Shown: positions 939-25,854, numbered from the stretch's first letter. The stretch: 32,000 bases of DNA from Candidatus Nanosynbacter lyticus (GCF_000803625.1 NZ_CP007496.1:450001-482000); one strand, 5' to 3'. The notes: generated by a model not told the origin, from the letters alone. Made by a program: numbers and translations.

Positions 939-1775
939 TTAGTTATATTGCTTTAATTTTAAAGATTCGCGATATTTTTTAAGCTGAGACTCGTAGTCAG
1001 ATGGGATATCCTGCCCCTGCCGTGTTGATCTGCCAGTAGAAGAACCGCCCTTATCATGAACTTTAACGGCGATAGTGATAGCGCCAGTCAGCAAGACTAC
1101 AACAGAAACTGCAATGAGTACCAAAGACATAATCTTTGATTTGTTTCGGCCCTGAATGATCTGATAAATAAAGTAGCTAGTCGCAACCACTACTGCAAGA
1201 GCCAGCGCATAAGGCAAGAACTCACTCAGATACAGGCTCTTGTAAACTTCTCCACCGGCTGCACCGATAAATAACAATGAGCTAATAAGGATACTCACCA
1301 AGCGTGCAATCAAATCAACAGCTGGAATAATTAAAGCAGCCAATCCGCCATAAGTCACCAATTTGTAAGCCGTGCGGTTTGTATAACCCTCACGATCTGA
1401 CACCGCCTTTGATACGCGAGAAAATAGAACACAAGCTAGAATAGCTAAGACAACTGTAAACACTGACGCTGCGACAATTCCAGTTCCTGCCGTCACCATT
1501 GTTGGAGCCAAGAATCCACCGACGGTCCTTATTGCACCTGAAGTCGTATCCGACCAAAGACCAACTACACTTGTAATTACGTTAATCAATAAGAATGCTG
1601 AAACGACTGTCGAAGCCATTGCCAAAGCGTATTCTAACGTAAGAAGTTTTGCCTTACCTTTATTTGGGTCAGCATACACGTATTGCTGTGGGTATGCTGG
1701 ATAGCCTACTGGCTGCTGCACCGGCATTTCTGGTTGCGCAACGGCTGATGGCTGTGGTTGTTGTTTTGTTGCCAT
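939..1775 (-). CDS. Hypothetical polytopic membrane protein (P/Q-rich N-terminus, several TM helices)
   Basis: This is a 278-aa ORF with a GGAGGT SD 4 nt upstream of the ATG. It has multiple long hydrophobic segments, and I recognise no family. Confidence 0.8.
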   Translation of the reverse strand: MATKQQPQPSAVAQPEMPVQQPVGYPAYPQQYVYADPNKGKAKLLTLEYALAMASTVVSAFLLINVITSVVGLWSDTTSGAIRTVGGFLAPTMVTAGTGIVAASVFTVVLAILACVLFSRVSKAVSDREGYTNRTAYKLVTYGGLAALIIPAVDLIARLVSILISSLLFIGAAGGEVYKSLYLSEFLPYALALAVVVATSYFIYQIIQGRNKSKIMSLVLIAVSVVVLLTGAITIAVKVHDKGGSSTGRSTRQGQDIPSDYESQLKKYRESLKLKQYN

Positions 1776-7578: not shown

Positions 7579-7607
7579 ATTATATCAGTTAGCGAGCGCT
7601 GTGCCAA
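7579..7607 (-). promoter_or_regulatory. Putative promoter of the fba operon
   Basis: The minus strand reads TTGGCA-17nt-TATAAT, about 27 nt upstream of the fba ATG. Confidence 0.55.
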
Positions 7608-7638
7608 GATACTTTGAATATTTCCAAAATAGCATATA

Positions 7639-7667
7639 TTGATTTTTAATGGAATATACGGTATATT
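7639..7667 (+). promoter_or_regulatory. Putative promoter of small-ORF cassette A
   Basis: The sequence reads TTGATT-17nt-TATATT. It is divergent from the fba promoter. Confidence 0.5.
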
Positions 7668-7676
7668 ACATGTCAG

Positions 7677-7745
7677 CTTTTGCTCAAGGCCTGTCTAAGG
7701 GCAAAAGAGCCCTTTAACCTTGAGTGCTCACCGAAAGGAGGGGCG
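7677..7745 (+). promoter_or_regulatory. Structured 5' leader, copy A of a repeated leader motif (candidate cis-regulatory RNA)
   Basis: About two-thirds of positions match 11081-11155. It has nested stems CTCAAGG/CCTTGAG and AAGGGC/GCCCTT, then a hairpin CTCACC-GAAA-GGAGGG that contains the SD. Confidence 0.55.
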
Positions 7746-7991
7746 ATGAGCCCTGTCGTGAAGATAGCCAAACTCGCATTTAACGGGTTTATCGTATTTG
7801 TCCTAGCAGCATGCATAGCATGGTGGGCGATTGTCGGCGGGCTGTCTGAGGCCTACGGGCCGATCGCAGGACTAACGTTCGCGTTTGTAAGCATAGCAAC
7901 TCCCGTACTTATCTACGGGATGAAACGTCACAACCACCACGAAGGGTACTACCCCGAGTGCGACTGCAACTGTTGCCGCGAACGCAAGTGA
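7746..7991 (+). CDS. Small (81 aa) two-TM membrane protein with Cys/His-rich C-terminal tail
   Basis: ATG 7746 is preceded by AAAGGAGGGG. There are two hydrophobic helices and the tail HNHHEGYYPECDCNCCRERK. The 22 upstream codons of the tracked ORF are the leader. Confidence 0.65.
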   Translation: MSPVVKIAKLAFNGFIVFVLAACIAWWAIVGGLSEAYGPIAGLTFAFVSIATPVLIYGMKRHNHHEGYYPECDCNCCRERK

Positions 7992-7996
7992 CGCAC

Positions 7997-8061
7997 ACCC
8001 GTCAGGACTACTGCTTTGAGGTCTTTAATTAGATCTTGGTAGTAGCTCCTGGCGGGTTTTT
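7997..8061 (+). terminator. Rho-independent terminator of cassette A
   Basis: A long imperfect hairpin pairs ACCCGTCAGGACTACT with AGTAGcTCCTGGCGGGT (16 bp, one bulge, one G-T pair). It is followed by TTTTT. Confidence 0.65.
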
Positions 8062-9023
8062 CACTGGAGAAAATCAACAACACTGTGAGTAATTGAATCA
8101 ACGTCCAAGCCATGCTTTTTCCATAATTCAGACATTTTGCCCGACTCTCCAAACGTGTCATTGACACCAATTCGCTTCATCTTCACCGGCAAATTCTCAC
8201 TAAGAACTTCCGCCACGCTCGAACCAAATCCGCCAGTAATCTGCCCCTCTTCCGCCGTAATAACAGCTTGACATTTTTGAGCCGCGTTAAGTACGGCCTC
8301 TTCATCCAATGGTTTAATTGTCGGGAAATGAATGACCTCCGCCTGAATATCATATTCTTTCGCCAATTTTTCTGCCGCTAATAACAGTTGATATGTCATC
8401 ACGCCCGTTCCCAATAGCGCGACATCTTTACCTCGCCTCAGTACATAACTTTTTCCGATCTCAAAAGTAGATTGATTTAAGAACAACGGCGTTTTTTCCC
8501 GAGGCAATCTCACGTAATTCGGGCGCTTATCGCCAGCCATTGCGCCCGCCATCAGCCTGGCTTCATTAGCATCGCCTGGCGCCAACACCACCATGTTTGG
8601 CAAACTGCGCATCAAAGCAATATCTTCCAACATCTGATGCGTCGCACCGTCCGCGCCAACGTTCAACCCAGCATGCGAGCCAACCAACTTGACTGGCTGA
8701 TTATTCAAACAAATAGTCGTCCGAATCTGTTCCCAATTCCGCCCCGGACTAAACGCCGCGTAACTGGCTGCAAATGGAATATTACCCATGGCAGCTAACC
8801 CAGACGCCACTGTCACCAAATTCTGCTCCGCCACACCAACTTCAATCGCCCTAGGACTACCAATTTCCTTAGCAAATTCACCAAAGCCGACGCTTTCCAT
8901 CAAATCCGCACTCAGCGCCACCACTAGATTATTCTTCTTAGCGACGTCTGTTAATCCTTCGCCAAAACCAATGCGAATAGCTGCAGTCTCTGATTGCCGC
9001 CAATCTTCTCTCAGAAAACTCAC
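8061..9023 (-). CDS. Transketolase, C-terminal (pyrimidine-binding) subunit
   Basis: The 320-aa ORF has EVGVAEQNLVTVASGLA and a GTG start overlapping the upstream stop (GTGA). This is a split transketolase. Confidence 0.92.
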   Translation of the reverse strand: MSFLREDWRQSETAAIRIGFGEGLTDVAKKNNLVVALSADLMESVGFGEFAKEIGSPRAIEVGVAEQNLVTVASGLAAMGNIPFAASYAAFSPGRNWEQIRTTICLNNQPVKLVGSHAGLNVGADGATHQMLEDIALMRSLPNMVVLAPGDANEARLMAGAMAGDKRPNYVRLPREKTPLFLNQSTFEIGKSYVLRRGKDVALLGTGVMTYQLLLAAEKLAKEYDIQAEVIHFPTIKPLDEEAVLNAAQKCQAVITAEEGQITGGFGSSVAEVLSENLPVKMKRIGVNDTFGESGKMSELWKKHGLDVDSITHSVVDFLQ

Positions 9024-10990: not shown

Positions 10991-11043
10991 GAGAAAGTCG
11001 GAGATTACTCCAGGGGTGAAGCATGCCTATTTGACAAAAAGTA

Positions 11044-11072
11044 TTGACATTTTATAACTGGTATGATATAAA
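11044..11072 (+). promoter_or_regulatory. Putative promoter of small-ORF cassette B
   Basis: The sequence reads TTGACA-17nt-TATAAA, with TG at the extended -10 position. Confidence 0.55.
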
Positions 11073-11080
11073 TAGATTAA

Positions 11081-11155
11081 CTTTTGTTCAAAGTTTTGTC
11101 TTAGGGCGGAAGTCGCCCTTTAGCTTTGAGTATCTTCCTGAAAGGAAGTGAAGAG
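11081..11155 (+). promoter_or_regulatory. Structured 5' leader, copy B of the repeated leader motif
   Basis: It has the same nested stems as copy A (TTCAAAG/CTTTGAG and AGGGCG/CGCCCT). An SD-sequestering hairpin CTTCC-TGAAA-GGAAG follows. Confidence 0.55.
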
Positions 11156-11395
11156 ATGAAGGTAAAGTTCACTCTCAGCAATGGCCAGTCATTCGCCACG
11201 AAAATCACATACGGCTTCAAGGACACTAGGGATCTAGTAGAAAATCTGTCTAGAATGCTAGGAGAAGCCACAGACAAATCTGTCGTGGAACTCGAAACAG
11301 AAGACGGGATGTTTCTTGGTCAGGCCGACCGACATTGTGTCGGTCGAAATCCGGAGCTAAAGTGTCTCGCGCCAGCAGAAGGCGCGCTAAGATAA
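11156..11395 (+). CDS. Small (79 aa) hydrophilic hypothetical protein
   Basis: ATG 11156 lies 7 nt after GGAAG. The unit has its own promoter and terminator. The protein shows no similarity to the cassette A protein and belongs to no family I recognise. Confidence 0.6.
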   Translation: MKVKFTLSNGQSFATKITYGFKDTRDLVENLSRMLGEATDKSVVELETEDGMFLGQADRHCVGRNPELKCLAPAEGALR

Positions 11396-11427
11396 ATATT
11401 CTGTAAAACCGCCGGAAATACCGACGT

Positions 11428-11463
11428 CCCCGCACTATCACAGTGCGGGGTTATTCCTTTTCT
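11428..11463 (+). terminator. Rho-independent terminator of cassette B
   Basis: The hairpin is CCCCGCACT-atcac-AGTGCGGGG, followed by TTATTCCTTTTCT. Confidence 0.7.
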
Positions 11464-23520: not shown

Positions 23521-25854
23521 CTACTAACTCTAGAAAACGGTTATCATCATCTTAATATAGAGGCTATGAAGAGATTTTTTTAACTCTCCGATATAAATTA
23601 ATCAATTCATTGATATCCATATCAACAAGAGGTTCATACATAAAAGCATTAAGGTGTATATTTTCTGGGGTCATAATATTTACCTCATCAATCACTTTCA
23701 CAGTATCGTTACTGCACTTAGTCTGTTTAAATGCATCAGAGAGGCTCCTCGTTTGATTTTTCTGAGCCTCCAATTGATCAAGAAATTCTTGTGAAGAGCC
23801 GCTTTCTGACCCTTCACGACCCCAAGATATTTGACCGCTATATTCTTTTAACTTACGCTTCATATATTCTTCCGCTCTATGTCTAATTGCAATAGCCAGA
23901 ATGATTTTATATTCAAGTAAGGATTTTTCGATGGTTATTGTTTCAGCTTCTGTGTAAATTGCGTCGACTATTGGAGTGTCTGTATTGATATTTATAAAAT
24001 CACTCCTACCTAAGTGTCTCTCGTAGATGTCTTTAAGTGACTGAAATGTTATGTCAGATGTTTCTTCTTTATTATGTAACAATTTAGTTAACTCACCGTA
24101 ATCTGCATCGTCTTTCCCTTTAGTATATTCAATTAGATTGCGCACTGCGGGAATAAGCGCAATTACATGAGCGAGCGTCATATTGTCCTTCCAGTGGTCA
24201 ATTGGATTTCTCTGATAAAATTCTTTTCTCAATATAACCTCGCCATTGTTCAGCTCTGCGTGCAAATGAGCGTATCTAGGTAAGCCAAGTCGACTAGTAA
24301 TCGTTCTATAGAAATCAAAATTATGCGACAAGATAATGAGCTTAAAATTTTTGCAATTTGCCATTTCATATAAATATTCAACAATTGCATACTTATTTTT
24401 ATAGTCAAAAGAATCAGCAATATCATCAACTACTAGTAAAACTTCTTTGTCTGTTCCTGCTAAATCTTTCTTCATTTTCTCAATATCAAAAATAATATTT
24501 AGCAGATATAAGGATCTCTTCTCTCCTTGGCTTAGAGTGTCCTTGATTTCAAGCTCTCCTCTACTGATAGTTTGCTGCCGACCATCTCTAGTAAATACAA
24601 ACTCTACCTGTGGAATATTCTCACCCATAATAGCACTTGTTCCGTTGGCAATTTTCATTTTATACGGCACCGTAAATCGTTCTTCAAAAATTCTTAGCGC
24701 TTCTCCCCAGCGTGTCTTTTCTGGATCTATGCCACCAATCTCATGCCGAAGACTATTCCACTTATCTTTAAGGTTGCTAAACGTGGTATTATCTTTCATA
24801 TAAGATAGCCATAATTGCCTACGTAGATCTTTAAGCTTAGACTCCTTTAGATACTGCACTACATCAGGGTTATTCTCTATAACTCTTCTTAGTACACCAC
24901 CTTTAGCTGTTTTCAAATCTTTCTCTATATCAGTAAAGGCCTTGCTTTGCTTAATCTCTTGTTCAATTCCCTTTACTACATCACTAAAATCTTCAGTTGT
25001 ACGTATTTCTTCCTCGCCAAAAAGTTTTACAAGATTATCGTTTACGAAAAATCCATTATCTTTCAGTGATTTCTCGACATTTTTAAGTTCAGACAGACTA
25101 AAAATACCCTTCTTTAAAAAACCATGTCGTTCATAAATCTCATTACTAGTTTTACAGAATTCTTCAATATTTTCTTGAAACCCTTTTTTCTTAATATATC
25201 CCAGTGTAGTATTATCAAAAATATCCGAATATTTAATTTCCGAAAAATCAATTCCTATACGTCCCTGTATAAGTTCCAACCCCAGTAAGATACTGCCATC
25301 CAGATCAAAATCTTTTACGATCTTTGGCTCTAGCTCACGTACATTCACGCCTTGTATAACTTTTTTAATTTTAAGACCAGAAGCTTTTTCTAAATCTTTC
25401 AATAAGTCGCTTTTTAGCTTGATAACATCTGATATCTTTTCCTTTATAGATTCATCTACCAATAGATCGGCAAGATTACCTGACTGATAAGAGGCCTCAA
25501 AGCTTTTTATCACGAAAACATCTTCTTCTGAAATATCTTTTCCATCGATGGTTATTTTTGCTTCTCCTGGGATATCAAAAATCTCATCTCTAATTTCTTT
25601 TTGCTTTTTATCTTGTATCTTTTTGAAAGTCTTAGCAAATGATGTTTTCATTAAGCCATTTTTCGCATAAATGGCAATTACACTAGTGTCAGAGAAAGTA
25701 AATTCACTTTCCAACTTTTGAATCCCGTAGCAATTAACTAAATCACATTTTATTTTTTCCATTTTATCCCCTCATTTTATATCTTACTTCACTTTCTTGT
25801 TTTCTTTAATAAGATTCGTGGGGCAAGCCATATTTTCTTTTCCAAACTACTAAC
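23521..25854. other. AT-rich compositional island carrying a single gene
   Basis: Hand counts of 60-nt lines give 18/60 G+C at 24421-24480. The flanking genes give 36/60 at 22141-22200 and 32/60 at 26101-26160. The boundaries are approximate. Confidence 0.6.
23564..25762 (-). CDS. ABC/SMC-like ATPase of RloC/PrrC (AAA_13)-like architecture, putative stand-alone defence/abortive-infection protein
   Basis: The 732-aa ORF has a GAGGGG SD and a P-loop-like YAKNGLMKTS (aa 32-41). A K/E-rich helical insertion of about 250 aa follows. It also has the signature LSQGEK (aa 410-415), Walker B VLLVVDDIADSFD (aa 441-453), LSHN (aa 478-481) and a C-terminal domain of about 235 aa. Confidence 0.9.
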   Translation of the reverse strand: MEKIKCDLVNCYGIQKLESEFTFSDTSVIAIYAKNGLMKTSFAKTFKKIQDKKQKEIRDEIFDIPGEAKITIDGKDISEEDVFVIKSFEASYQSGNLADLLVDESIKEKISDVIKLKSDLLKDLEKASGLKIKKVIQGVNVRELEPKIVKDFDLDGSILLGLELIQGRIGIDFSEIKYSDIFDNTTLGYIKKKGFQENIEEFCKTSNEIYERHGFLKKGIFSLSELKNVEKSLKDNGFFVNDNLVKLFGEEEIRTTEDFSDVVKGIEQEIKQSKAFTDIEKDLKTAKGGVLRRVIENNPDVVQYLKESKLKDLRRQLWLSYMKDNTTFSNLKDKWNSLRHEIGGIDPEKTRWGEALRIFEERFTVPYKMKIANGTSAIMGENIPQVEFVFTRDGRQQTISRGELEIKDTLSQGEKRSLYLLNIIFDIEKMKKDLAGTDKEVLLVVDDIADSFDYKNKYAIVEYLYEMANCKNFKLIILSHNFDFYRTITSRLGLPRYAHLHAELNNGEVILRKEFYQRNPIDHWKDNMTLAHVIALIPAVRNLIEYTKGKDDADYGELTKLLHNKEETSDITFQSLKDIYERHLGRSDFININTDTPIVDAIYTEAETITIEKSLLEYKIILAIAIRHRAEEYMKRKLKEYSGQISWGREGSESGSSQEFLDQLEAQKNQTRSLSDAFKQTKCSNDTVKVIDEVNIMTPENIHLNAFMYEPLVDMDINELINLYRRVKKISS

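Follow-up and report, generated by a model that had tools for sequence, protein, structure and literature searches.

The window analysed here, 32,000 nt of the Candidatus Nanosynbacter lyticus TM7x genome (GCF_000803625.1 NZ_CP007496.1:450001-482000), contains two copies of a small-gene expression unit which is specific to Saccharibacteria, and the SD-sequestering hairpin originally flagged in this region is part of one of them. Each unit consists, in this order, of a near-consensus promoter, a pseudoknotted leader, an SD hairpin, a small ORF and a structured 3' end with terminator, and there is very little doubt about the existence of the unit and its architecture. The conserved and covarying part is not the SD hairpin, which the first-pass annotation had taken for the conserved element, but a 5'-terminal pseudoknot upstream of it that the annotation had missed. 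Devices that combine SD sequestration with a structured 5' leader are already known. What appears to be new is a clade-wide covarying 5'-terminal pseudoknot on dozens of unrelated small membrane-protein genes, and its framing by consensus promoters and conserved 3' ends, without an antitoxin, likewise appears to be new.

The neighbouring minus-strand genes were assigned by Pfam as pfkB, fba, a split transketolase (tktC and tktN), rpe, rpiB and gap, followed by relA/spoT. Amid these genes (fba | tktC-tktN-rpe-rpiB | gap) both units lie on the plus strand, in agreement with their earlier description as opposite-strand insertions. One unit occupies the gap between fba and tktC (slot A, with an ORF at 7746-7991), the other the gap between rpiB and gap (slot B, with an ORF at 11156-11395), and ORF B is identical to TM7x_02450. 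The attributed layout holds for both copies as well: behind a sigma70-like promoter come about 70-77 nt of leader, a small ORF and a strong terminator. The features of unit A are the following:

7639-7667, plus strand: promoter with -35 TTGATT (7639-7644), a 17-nt spacer and -10 TATATT (7662-7667), from a promoter scan
about 7675-7676, plus strand: predicted +1, from promoter geometry
7677-7724, plus strand: leader motif (fold; covariance-model match at 7671-7725, 65.3 bits; covariation)
7726-7745, plus strand: anti-SD/SD hairpin GCUC-A-CC GAAA GG-AG-GGGC (fold -7.6 kcal/mol, z -1.4)
7737-7741, plus strand: SD GGAGG, within the 3' arm of the hairpin
7746-7991, plus strand: ORF A, 81 aa, with two predicted TM segments and a His/Cys-rich tail
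7997-8062, plus strand: terminator, a hairpin (7997-8057) followed by U5 (8058-8062; -39.4 kcal/mol, z -7.3)

Unit B is built in the same way:

11030-11072, plus strand: promoter, an A-rich UP-like stretch followed by -35 and -10 (sequence; family survey)
11044-11072, plus strand: -35 TTGACA (11044-11049), a 17-nt spacer and an extended -10 TG-a-TATAAA (11064-11072)
11079-11080, plus strand: predicted +1, from promoter geometry
11081-11130, plus strand: leader motif (fold; covariance-model match at 11075-11131, 76.8 bits; covariation)
11134-11148, plus strand: anti-SD/SD hairpin CUUCC-UGAAA-GGAAG (fold -5.6 kcal/mol, z -0.9)
11143-11148, plus strand: SD, within the 3' arm of the hairpin
11156-11395, plus strand: ORF B (TM7x_02450), 79 aa, soluble, a frameshifted allele
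11363-11461, plus strand: conserved 3' end (about -40 kcal/mol)
11363-11394, plus strand: 3' hairpin, now overlapped by the frameshifted ORF
11428-11461, plus strand: terminator hairpin (11428-11450) with a U-rich tail (11451-11461)

In an alignment of the two leaders, the sequence common to copies A and B is the block upstream of the SD hairpin, at 7677-7724 and 11081-11130, which reads CUUUUG-yUCAArG-...-AGGGC-loop-GCCCU-UUAr-CyUUGAG. Its core pattern is matched twice in the window as opposed to 0.00 matches expected. Both leaders fold into a helix, P1, enclosing a GC-rich hairpin, P2, and the tail CUUUUG just 5' of P1 is complementary to the P2 loop (CAAAAG in A, GGAAGU in B). In the family consensus, the first transcribed bases RR-CUUUYG pair with the purine-rich P2 loop CRRAAG. 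The elements of the fold are located as follows:

7677-7682, plus strand: unit A, 5' strand of the pseudoknot, CUUUUG
7683-7689 with 7718-7724, plus strand: unit A, P1
7690-7697, plus strand: unit A, J1/2
7698-7702 with 7709-7713, plus strand: unit A, P2
7702-7708, plus strand: unit A, P2 loop and 3' strand of the pseudoknot
7714-7717, plus strand: unit A, J2/1
11081-11086, plus strand: unit B, 5' strand of the pseudoknot, CUUUUG
11087-11094 with 11123-11130, plus strand: unit B, P1
11095-11102, plus strand: unit B, J1/2
11103-11108 with 11114-11119, plus strand: unit B, P2
11108-11113, plus strand: unit B, P2 loop and 3' strand of the pseudoknot
11120-11122, plus strand: unit B, J2/1

Relatives of the leader were collected in four steps, starting with syntenic oral-metagenome contigs which were reached via homologues of the ORFs. 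When 185,579 species-representative genomes were scanned for the core pattern, 33 loci emerged, 31 of them in Saccharibacteria; a covariance model, R1, was built from 32 distinct copies, and a metagenome scan using a pattern in which J1/2 was left free added at least 120 loci. R1 confirms at least 164 copies in Saccharibacteria genomes and metagenomes, at least 126 of which are distinct, with scores of 27-85 bits. When applied to the window with filters off, it recovers exactly the two copies (76.8 and 65.3 bits), with the next best match at 9.8. Both pattern matches in genomes outside Saccharibacteria fail R1. A phage origin was also considered and rejected, as the covariance model rejects each of the three pattern matches on viral contigs. 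At gathering thresholds, scans of the whole window and of seven related loci give no match to any Rfam 15 family, and a permissive scan of the two leader regions (E up to 10) returned only chance-level matches with E values of 0.4-8. A literature search found no paper describing the motif. The transcriptome paper on TM7x reports no validated small RNAs for this organism, and neither TM7x_02450 nor the units are mentioned in the TM7x transcriptome papers and supplements examined, in which matches to "02450" correspond to host genes.

Covariation is present in both P1 and the pseudoknot. Across 110 distinct sequences, standard pairs fill 98.5% of the cells of P1, P2 and the pseudoknot, as opposed to only 25-70% in controls in which the partner strand was slid. 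The counts at P1 pair 20-76 (AU 60, GC 26, GU 23) and at the pseudoknot pairs 12-54 (UG 45, UA 36, CG 22) and 11-56 (UG 69, UA 36, CG 4) are not counts of independent events, and some of them stem from common ancestry, because the family is shallow, the proteins flanking the slot A and slot B copies being 84-100% identical to those of TM7x. Tail and loop also change in length together, with CUUUUUG accompanied by CAAGAAG and CUUUUCG by CGGAAAG or CGAGAAG. Furthermore, the pairing of tails with their own loops amounts to -4.98 kcal/mol as compared with -4.49 +/- 0.17 kcal/mol for permuted loops, and 5 of 2000 permutations were as good. Since G-U pairs are frequent, the structure is assigned to the plus-strand RNA and not to the DNA. 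The invariance of P2, J2/1 and the sequence CCCUUU is partly a matter of construction, because the search patterns preset these elements.

Within the P2 loop, the segment between the pseudoknot strand and P2 comprises only 2-3 nt, and all six pseudoknot pairs together are therefore unlikely to coexist with a full P2. Pseudoknot geometry argues that, once P2 is formed, probably only the junction-proximal pairs of the pseudoknot, which are those that covary, can form. P1 is found in 132 of 134 minimum-energy folds of the full leader. The SD hairpin is a separate local module, and no conserved alternative pairing between it and the leader was seen, although a kinetic switch between them is conceivable. 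A hok-like 5'-3' pairing of the 5' strand of P1 with an element at the 3' end (GCUUGAGC / GCUUUGAGG) was also considered and discarded, as the element does not covary with P1 variants.

The promoters place this structure at the start of the transcript. In a survey of 117 distinct upstream regions, which comprise several promoter types, 93 have TTGACA and 16 have TTGACT as their -35, the spacer measures 17 nt in 116, 113 carry the TG of an extended -10, and two purines stand just before the first C of the pseudoknot in all 117. An A-rich UP-like stretch is common upstream of the family promoters. The slot A promoter of TM7x is different from and weaker than those of all its relatives (TTGACA-17-TGnTAACAT), and its distance to the motif is kept. 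Because the predicted +1 lies 1-2 nt before the pseudoknot strand, the motif is predicted to lie at the very beginning of the RNA.

Both hairpins of the first-pass annotation were recovered further downstream, CTTCC-TGAAA-GGAAG at 11134-11148 in copy B and CTCACC-GAAA-GGAGGG, including its A-A mismatch, at 7727-7742 in copy A, each with the SD in its 3' arm. Taken alone, both lie within chance, given that 21 of 200 shuffles fold as well as the hairpin of copy A and 33 of 200 as well as that of copy B. The base-for-base compensatory match which had been drawn between them is meaningless, for the two hairpins are cargo-specific and cannot be aligned. Across instances, the sequences are heterogeneous and stabilities range from 0 to -10 kcal/mol; among 38 tabulated distinct genome instances, five (L027, L028, L041, L031 and L032) have no stable SD hairpin (dG >= -0.3). 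The SD hairpin is cargo-specific, non-homologous between cargos and sometimes absent. As a class feature of the units, SD sequestration is real. The 33 nt up to the start codon fold with a mean of -7.25 kcal/mol in the units as opposed to -2.79 kcal/mol in 189 ordinary genes from the same contigs (Mann-Whitney p about 2e-26), and folds of -5 kcal/mol or below occur in 73% of the units but in 21% of the control genes. The significance of the SD hairpin is visible family-wide and not for each hairpin. The earlier suggestion of a translational throttle common to unrelated small proteins gains support from this enrichment over genes of the same contigs.

The suggestion that one leader serves unrelated proteins is borne out on a larger scale, as the leader lies upstream of at least 33 unrelated cargo families. 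These comprise 147 distinct products with a median length of 73 aa, 89% of which have at least one predicted TM segment and many of which have two or three, while MKVKF and a 70-aa Cys-rich family are soluble. The cargo is lineage-specific and rapidly diverging. Searches with Pfam and NCBIfam gave no assignment for the cargo proteins, including no match to NCBIfam toxin families, and no metabolic or transport theme is common to the downstream genes of the 33 or more families. Judged by their codon differences, the cargo ORFs are under purifying selection. In three families, third-position differences exceed second-position differences 1.46-1.54-fold, and 46-48% of single-base codon differences are synonymous as opposed to about a quarter expected for unselected sequence. 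Since the ORFs evolve as coding sequence, the alternative that the units encode sRNAs only is disfavoured.

ORF A is a member of the slot-A "MSPVV(K/R)" family, which typically measures 61-81 aa, and displays a third-to-second position ratio of 1.46 with 48% of single-base codon differences synonymous. It has no match in Pfam or NCBIfam and may be unannotated in the public record, because no identical protein was found in the searched collection. ORF B carries one additional nucleotide near 11312 relative to its family of 65-67 aa; the frameshift replaces the last 13 residues, and the reading frame runs into the conserved 3' hairpin. P0004 represents an intact, TM7x-like allele, and ORF B, too, carries a coding signature. 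The closely matching ORF sizes of 81 and 79 aa, initially regarded as a shared trait, are a coincidence, because the 1-nt insertion lengthens ORF B of TM7x, the orthologues of which measure 67 aa, while those of slot A range from 61 to 81 aa. The ORF B family is predicted to adopt a bb-a-bbb fold (model pLDDT 72), for which the best PDB match is Rv3208A (TM 0.75).

The 3' ends fall into only two large homology groups across all contexts. All slot-A relatives retain the terminator of unit A, which is convergent with the end of tktC, and 45 members make up the slot-A 3' homology group. The 3' end type of unit B follows every MKVKF cargo and also an unrelated one, the 113-aa lipoprotein-like ORF in slot B of L001. 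An elaborate element of about 110 nt in one of the 3' homology groups has no match in Rfam. Slot B of L001 shares with the family its promoter, its first transcribed bases and its 3' end, but its leader is unrelated. Bases 2-9 of this substitute leader are paired in a hairpin at the 5' terminus (z -6.2), and the leader once more ends in an SD hairpin. Two unrelated architectures would thus both bury the 5' end and hide the SD.

The reading favoured here, although it is given somewhat less than an even chance, is that the leader buries the mRNA 5' end and so contributes to stability, while the SD hairpin throttles translation. The 5'-terminal pseudoknot would enclose the mRNA's 5' end within a helix, could thereby shield it from 5'-end-dependent decay of the RNase J/RppH type, and would provide the same stable 5' end for every cargo. 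The structured 3' end may likewise shield the message from 3' exonucleases, and the SD hairpin would keep translation initiation low or conditional. The net result would be abundant, long-lived and weakly translated mRNAs for small membrane proteins. With the +1 predicted from promoter geometry only, the structure would begin within the limit of about 4 nt from the 5' end that applies to 5'-terminal stabilisers. The pseudoknot could perhaps also serve as a standby platform for 30S/S1 in the manner of tisB and timP. Ca. Saccharibacteria are listed as having an RNase J family protein (PMC10340364). The 732-aa ORF at 23564-25762 of the window was considered as an RNase J and rejected, with no Pfam domain found in it. 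It may also be observed that a simple hairpin would be enough for 5'-end protection, which counts against a pure stabiliser reading.

The genomic contexts raise a wider reading. Slots A and B hold only about half of the copies, and the rest are found in at least 20 other neighbour combinations, which include genes for SpoU methylase, pseudouridine synthase, DnaE, ABC-2 permease, a MazG-like protein and CDP-alcohol phosphatidyltransferase. The first-pass annotation had offered a mobile promoter-leader module as one explanation. As to the module, promoter, leader and often the 3' end indeed recur in at least 20 neighbourhoods with different cargo. Mobility, however, is contradicted by the limit of two copies per representative genome in the strict-core scan (which looser copies could escape), by the syntenic position of some copies beside housekeeping genes, by the absence of a recombinase among the annotated neighbours, and by the absence of copies from phage contigs; the units thus do not fit a mobile element or integron-like cassette, for which a recombinase or att sites, multiple dispersed copies per genome and a location on mobile DNA would be expected. 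A swap of cargo between conserved 5' and 3' ends would fit homologous recombination. It is conceivable, though rather doubtful, that the units represent a lineage-wide "plug-in" slot with a fixed frame and exchangeable small membrane-protein genes, in which the pseudoknot is a common post-transcriptional handle. The frame would comprise the maximal-strength promoter, the 5'-terminal pseudoknot and the structured 3' end, with genes swapped by recombination, and the pseudoknot would act either as a tisB/timP-like standby or activation element or as the target of one trans-acting factor. If so, a regulator-poor organism could switch its strain-variable membrane proteins together, for instance on host contact, and the proteins switched might be toxic or belong to the host interface.

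The sequestered RBS and the structured 5' UTR are also features of type I toxin mRNAs, and the messages could encode toxic or growth-modulating proteins, with the SD hairpin keeping the mRNA inert, the pseudoknot providing standby loading of 30S/S1, and a trans-encoded sRNA acting against the common leader. Small hydrophobic products (by the median length and TM content given above), a 5'-proximal pseudoknot, strong terminators and lineage-specific, fast-diverging cargo are all in line with this, and direct precedents are available in tisB (PMC7708055) and timP (PMC11228461); moreover, a common leader would let one trans-acting RNA govern many cargos. However, a cis-antisense antitoxin was sought and rejected, as an antisense promoter-like site is present in only 3 of 139 units, and the 32-kb window contains no second locus complementary to the leader. 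Typical type I toxins are shorter than the cargo, which often has two or three TM segments, includes soluble families and is unmatched among the NCBIfam toxin families. Some units retain the leader without an SD hairpin, and units are stable at syntenic chromosomal sites. This explanation is considered unlikely because 136 of the 139 units lack an antisense partner and the cargo is atypical.

The conservation of the leader itself points in another direction. Tail (RRCUUUYG) and P2 loop (CRRAAG) are nearly invariant although the search patterns did not constrain them, and together with the conserved GGG/CCC-UUU core this suggests an additional sequence-specific recognition which stabilisation alone does not explain. 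The leader could accordingly be imagined as a sensor, either a riboswitch or the site of a regulatory protein, whose P1/P2/pseudoknot fold is recognised so that translation or stability of all units shifts together. A compact pseudoknotted fold resembles small riboswitch aptamers, a single leader ahead of many genes is regulon-like, and TM7x has few transcription factors. Several observations speak against a sensor. J1/2, the largest junction, varies freely in sequence and length (4 to 12 nt) and is deleted in L017, L018, L083, L093, L117 and L133, whose ORFs are intact; being free to vary or to be lost, it cannot form a conserved pocket. The sequence UGUCU in J1/2, a candidate for a conserved core or ligand pocket, proved to be an artefact of the search pattern, since it varies in copies found by the model only and in the scan with J1/2 left free. 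Where a riboswitch would have a conserved unpaired pocket, the conserved tail and P2 loop are paired. There is no Rfam match even at E up to 10, the SD hairpin is self-contained, with P1 retained in nearly all folds and no conserved alternative pairing, and the downstream genes have no common metabolic theme. With tail and loop conserved, yet J1/2 free and the genes themeless, a sensor is regarded as distinctly unlikely.

It is very improbable that the leader is an attenuator or the source of a short sRNA, in which the GC-rich P2 followed by UUUAGCUUU would act as an early intrinsic terminator, releasing a 5' RNA of about 45 nt and leaving the mRNA to read-through. A terminator scan does flag AGGGCGGAAGTCGCCCT + TTAGCTTTGA in copy B, and CCCUUU is invariant in every copy found, including those found by the model without pattern pre-selection. 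The U tract, however, is interrupted and lies on the 3' side of P1, where it covaries with its partner strand, and full-length transcripts must matter because the ORFs, by their codon differences, are under purifying selection and have their own SD and strong terminators. The original proposal, that the SD hairpin (for example as an RNA thermometer) is the conserved device and the cassettes are a mobile promoter-leader module, draws on the GAAA-type loops of many SD hairpins and the 20 or more gene neighbourhoods but is scarcely credible, given hairpins that are non-homologous between cargos, individually weak and missing from some instances, heterogeneous in sequence and ahead of genes which are not heat-shock genes, no Rfam match to ROSE or FourU in the window scan or the permissive leader-region scans, and the few copies per genome, none in phage contigs or beside a recombinase.

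Burial of the 5' end combined with SD sequestration, the favoured reading, would be of interest beyond this locus. Patescibacteria/CPR represent a large share of bacterial diversity and have tiny genomes with few known regulators, and TM7x, their model organism, has no validated small or cis-regulatory RNAs. For Saccharibacteria, the leader would represent the first RNA family of structured leaders to be defined. It links uncharacterised small membrane proteins that vary between strains and belong to at least 33 families; these proteins are candidates for the interface between epibiont and host or for toxin-like roles. It would also indicate that the logic of type I toxin mRNAs, a 5'-end helix combined with an SD hairpin, can serve as a reusable frame without a recognisable antitoxin. 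As TM7x is now genetically tractable, these predictions are directly testable, and the native set of strong promoter, leader and terminator could be used in the new genetic tools of this group.

Among known systems, the tisB (+42) and timP toxin mRNAs of enterobacteria are comparable in that a 5'-proximal pseudoknot is essential for translation from a sequestered RBS via S1/30S standby (PMC7708055; PMC11228461). As in these mRNAs, a 5'-proximal pseudoknot and a sequestered RBS precede a small membrane protein in the units described here. In tisB and timP, however, the UTRs are long and about 100 nt separate the pseudoknots from the RBS, whereas the leader measures 70-77 nt here and its pseudoknot includes the very first predicted transcribed bases; in addition, the antitoxins IstR-1 and TimR have no counterpart found here. 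In the par locus of pAD1 in Enterococcus faecalis, the 5'-UH of RNA I, an intramolecular helix, conceals the outermost 5' end and adds to stability, and the 5'-SL hides the SD of the Fst toxin (PMC7472228). The units resemble RNA I in having a two-part 5' architecture before a small hydrophobic product and a strong terminator. They differ from it in that a pseudoknot is nested in a second helix instead of a simple helix, in that no equivalent of the convergent antitoxin RNA II was detected, and in their larger products (median 73 aa, often with two or three TM segments) from at least 33 unrelated families; nor is there a relationship to RNA I in sequence or in Rfam.

The preQ1-I, SAM-II and fluoride riboswitches are similar in size, at about 50 nt, and in a pseudoknot that uses a hairpin loop. 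In contrast to these riboswitches, the leader gives no covariance match, its SD lies outside the pseudoknot, its main junction is unconserved, and its genes have no common metabolic theme. The 5' hairpin of ompA and the leaders of aprE and ermC in Bacillus are 5'-terminal stabilisers of their mRNAs. With these the units share a structure within a few nucleotides of the (here predicted) 5' end behind a strong promoter; whereas the former are single-gene hairpins or ribosome-binding stabilisers, the structure described here is a covarying pseudoknot which, across a bacterial lineage, is located on dozens of unrelated genes.

The small units of the TM7x window, each consisting of a promoter, a leader and a 3' end around a small ORF (the cargo), occupy two intergenic slots:

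7746–7991, ORF A, the cargo of slot A (between fba and tktC)
11156–11395, ORF B (TM7x_02450), the cargo of slot B (between rpiB and gap)

In the slot B of a close relative (L001:4150–4760), the promoter and the 3' end are the same as in TM7x, while the leader is a different one with four hairpins and the ORF encodes a lipoprotein-like protein of 113 aa (MSTTRGMVVTILLALFGLTGLTGCADV...). This looks like an exchange of cargo and leader between conserved flanks.

In slot A, it is the promoter that differs. The relatives carry TTGACA-17-TGnTAACAT (L001:800–850 and all other slot-A relatives compared), whereas TM7x carries TTGATT-17-TATATT (window 7600–7675), a weaker and dissimilar promoter without the TG extension. 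Among the slot-A relatives compared, TM7x is the only one with a different promoter, which lies within approximately 67 nt of unrelated sequence, and the promoter-to-leader distance is nevertheless kept. In slot B, a promoter-like site (TTGAAC-17-TATCAT; 11091–11063, minus strand) overlaps the start of the leader and is directed towards rpiB, its -35 element being the reverse complement of the 5' strand of the leader stem P1. This site may represent a divergent promoter of the rpiB operon or a chance occurrence.

Most cargos outside slot A are followed by a conserved 3' element of approximately 110 nt (e.g., L029:4440–4560, L053, L026, and L046), which also occurs as a short version, does not occur in the window and has no match in Rfam. 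Its putative base stem (AAAAUAGCUCGCCG/CGGCGGGCUAUUUU) would enclose three conserved hairpins and, as in a bidirectional terminator, contains an A-tract and a U-tract.

ORF A belongs to a conserved family with a coding signature. No sequence identical to ORF A was found in a collection of 5.8 billion protein clusters, where the top match is 93% identical, and ORF A therefore appears to be missing from the annotation of the public TM7x record. The C-terminal tails following the second transmembrane segment of slot-A cargos (e.g., ORF A, L027, and L003) are short and highly variable, with many His, Cys, Asp, and Arg residues (e.g., KRHNHHEGYYPECDCNCCRERK, KHHDHHDGYDHHEGCNSRCDRR, KRSDDRRRDRRCDRRHDHR, or just IYHDRP), a composition that may point to metal binding. 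The remainder of the window comprises two ORFs without a Pfam domain at E ≤ 1e-5 and ordinary genes:

939–1775, minus strand, 278-aa ORF, synteny kept in relatives
23564–25762, minus strand, 732-aa ORF
Ordinary genes: UvrB, LOG-like, PPase, TrxB-like, FKBP, PheS/PheT, ABC/FtsX, OmpR-type two-component pair, HIT, pyridine-nucleotide disulphide oxidoreductase

Compared with all orthologues, TM7x_02450 contains a 1-nt insertion at 11311–11313, which replaces the last 13 residues of ORF B with 25 unrelated ones and extends the reading frame into the conserved 3' hairpin (11363–11394). An intact TM7x-like allele (P0004) is present in a metagenome; either a lesion confined to this strain or a sequencing error may explain the insertion. 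In slot B of Ca. Minimicrobia vallesae (L025:6462–6700), the cargo ORF of the same family (MKVKF) breaks off at a premature stop codon once 24 residues have been encoded, and the leader junction J1/2 reads CGCCU instead of UGUCU, with P1, P2, and the pseudoknot still intact.

The AlphaFold model of the ORF-B family (P0007; window 11156–11320; pLDDT 72) adopts a bb-a-bbb fold. Hfq/Sm barrels are less similar to this model (TM ~0.5) than its top PDB match, the small oligomeric protein Rv3208A of Mycobacterium tuberculosis (7rur; TM 0.75, rmsd 2.0 Å, 22% identity, E ~3e-3).
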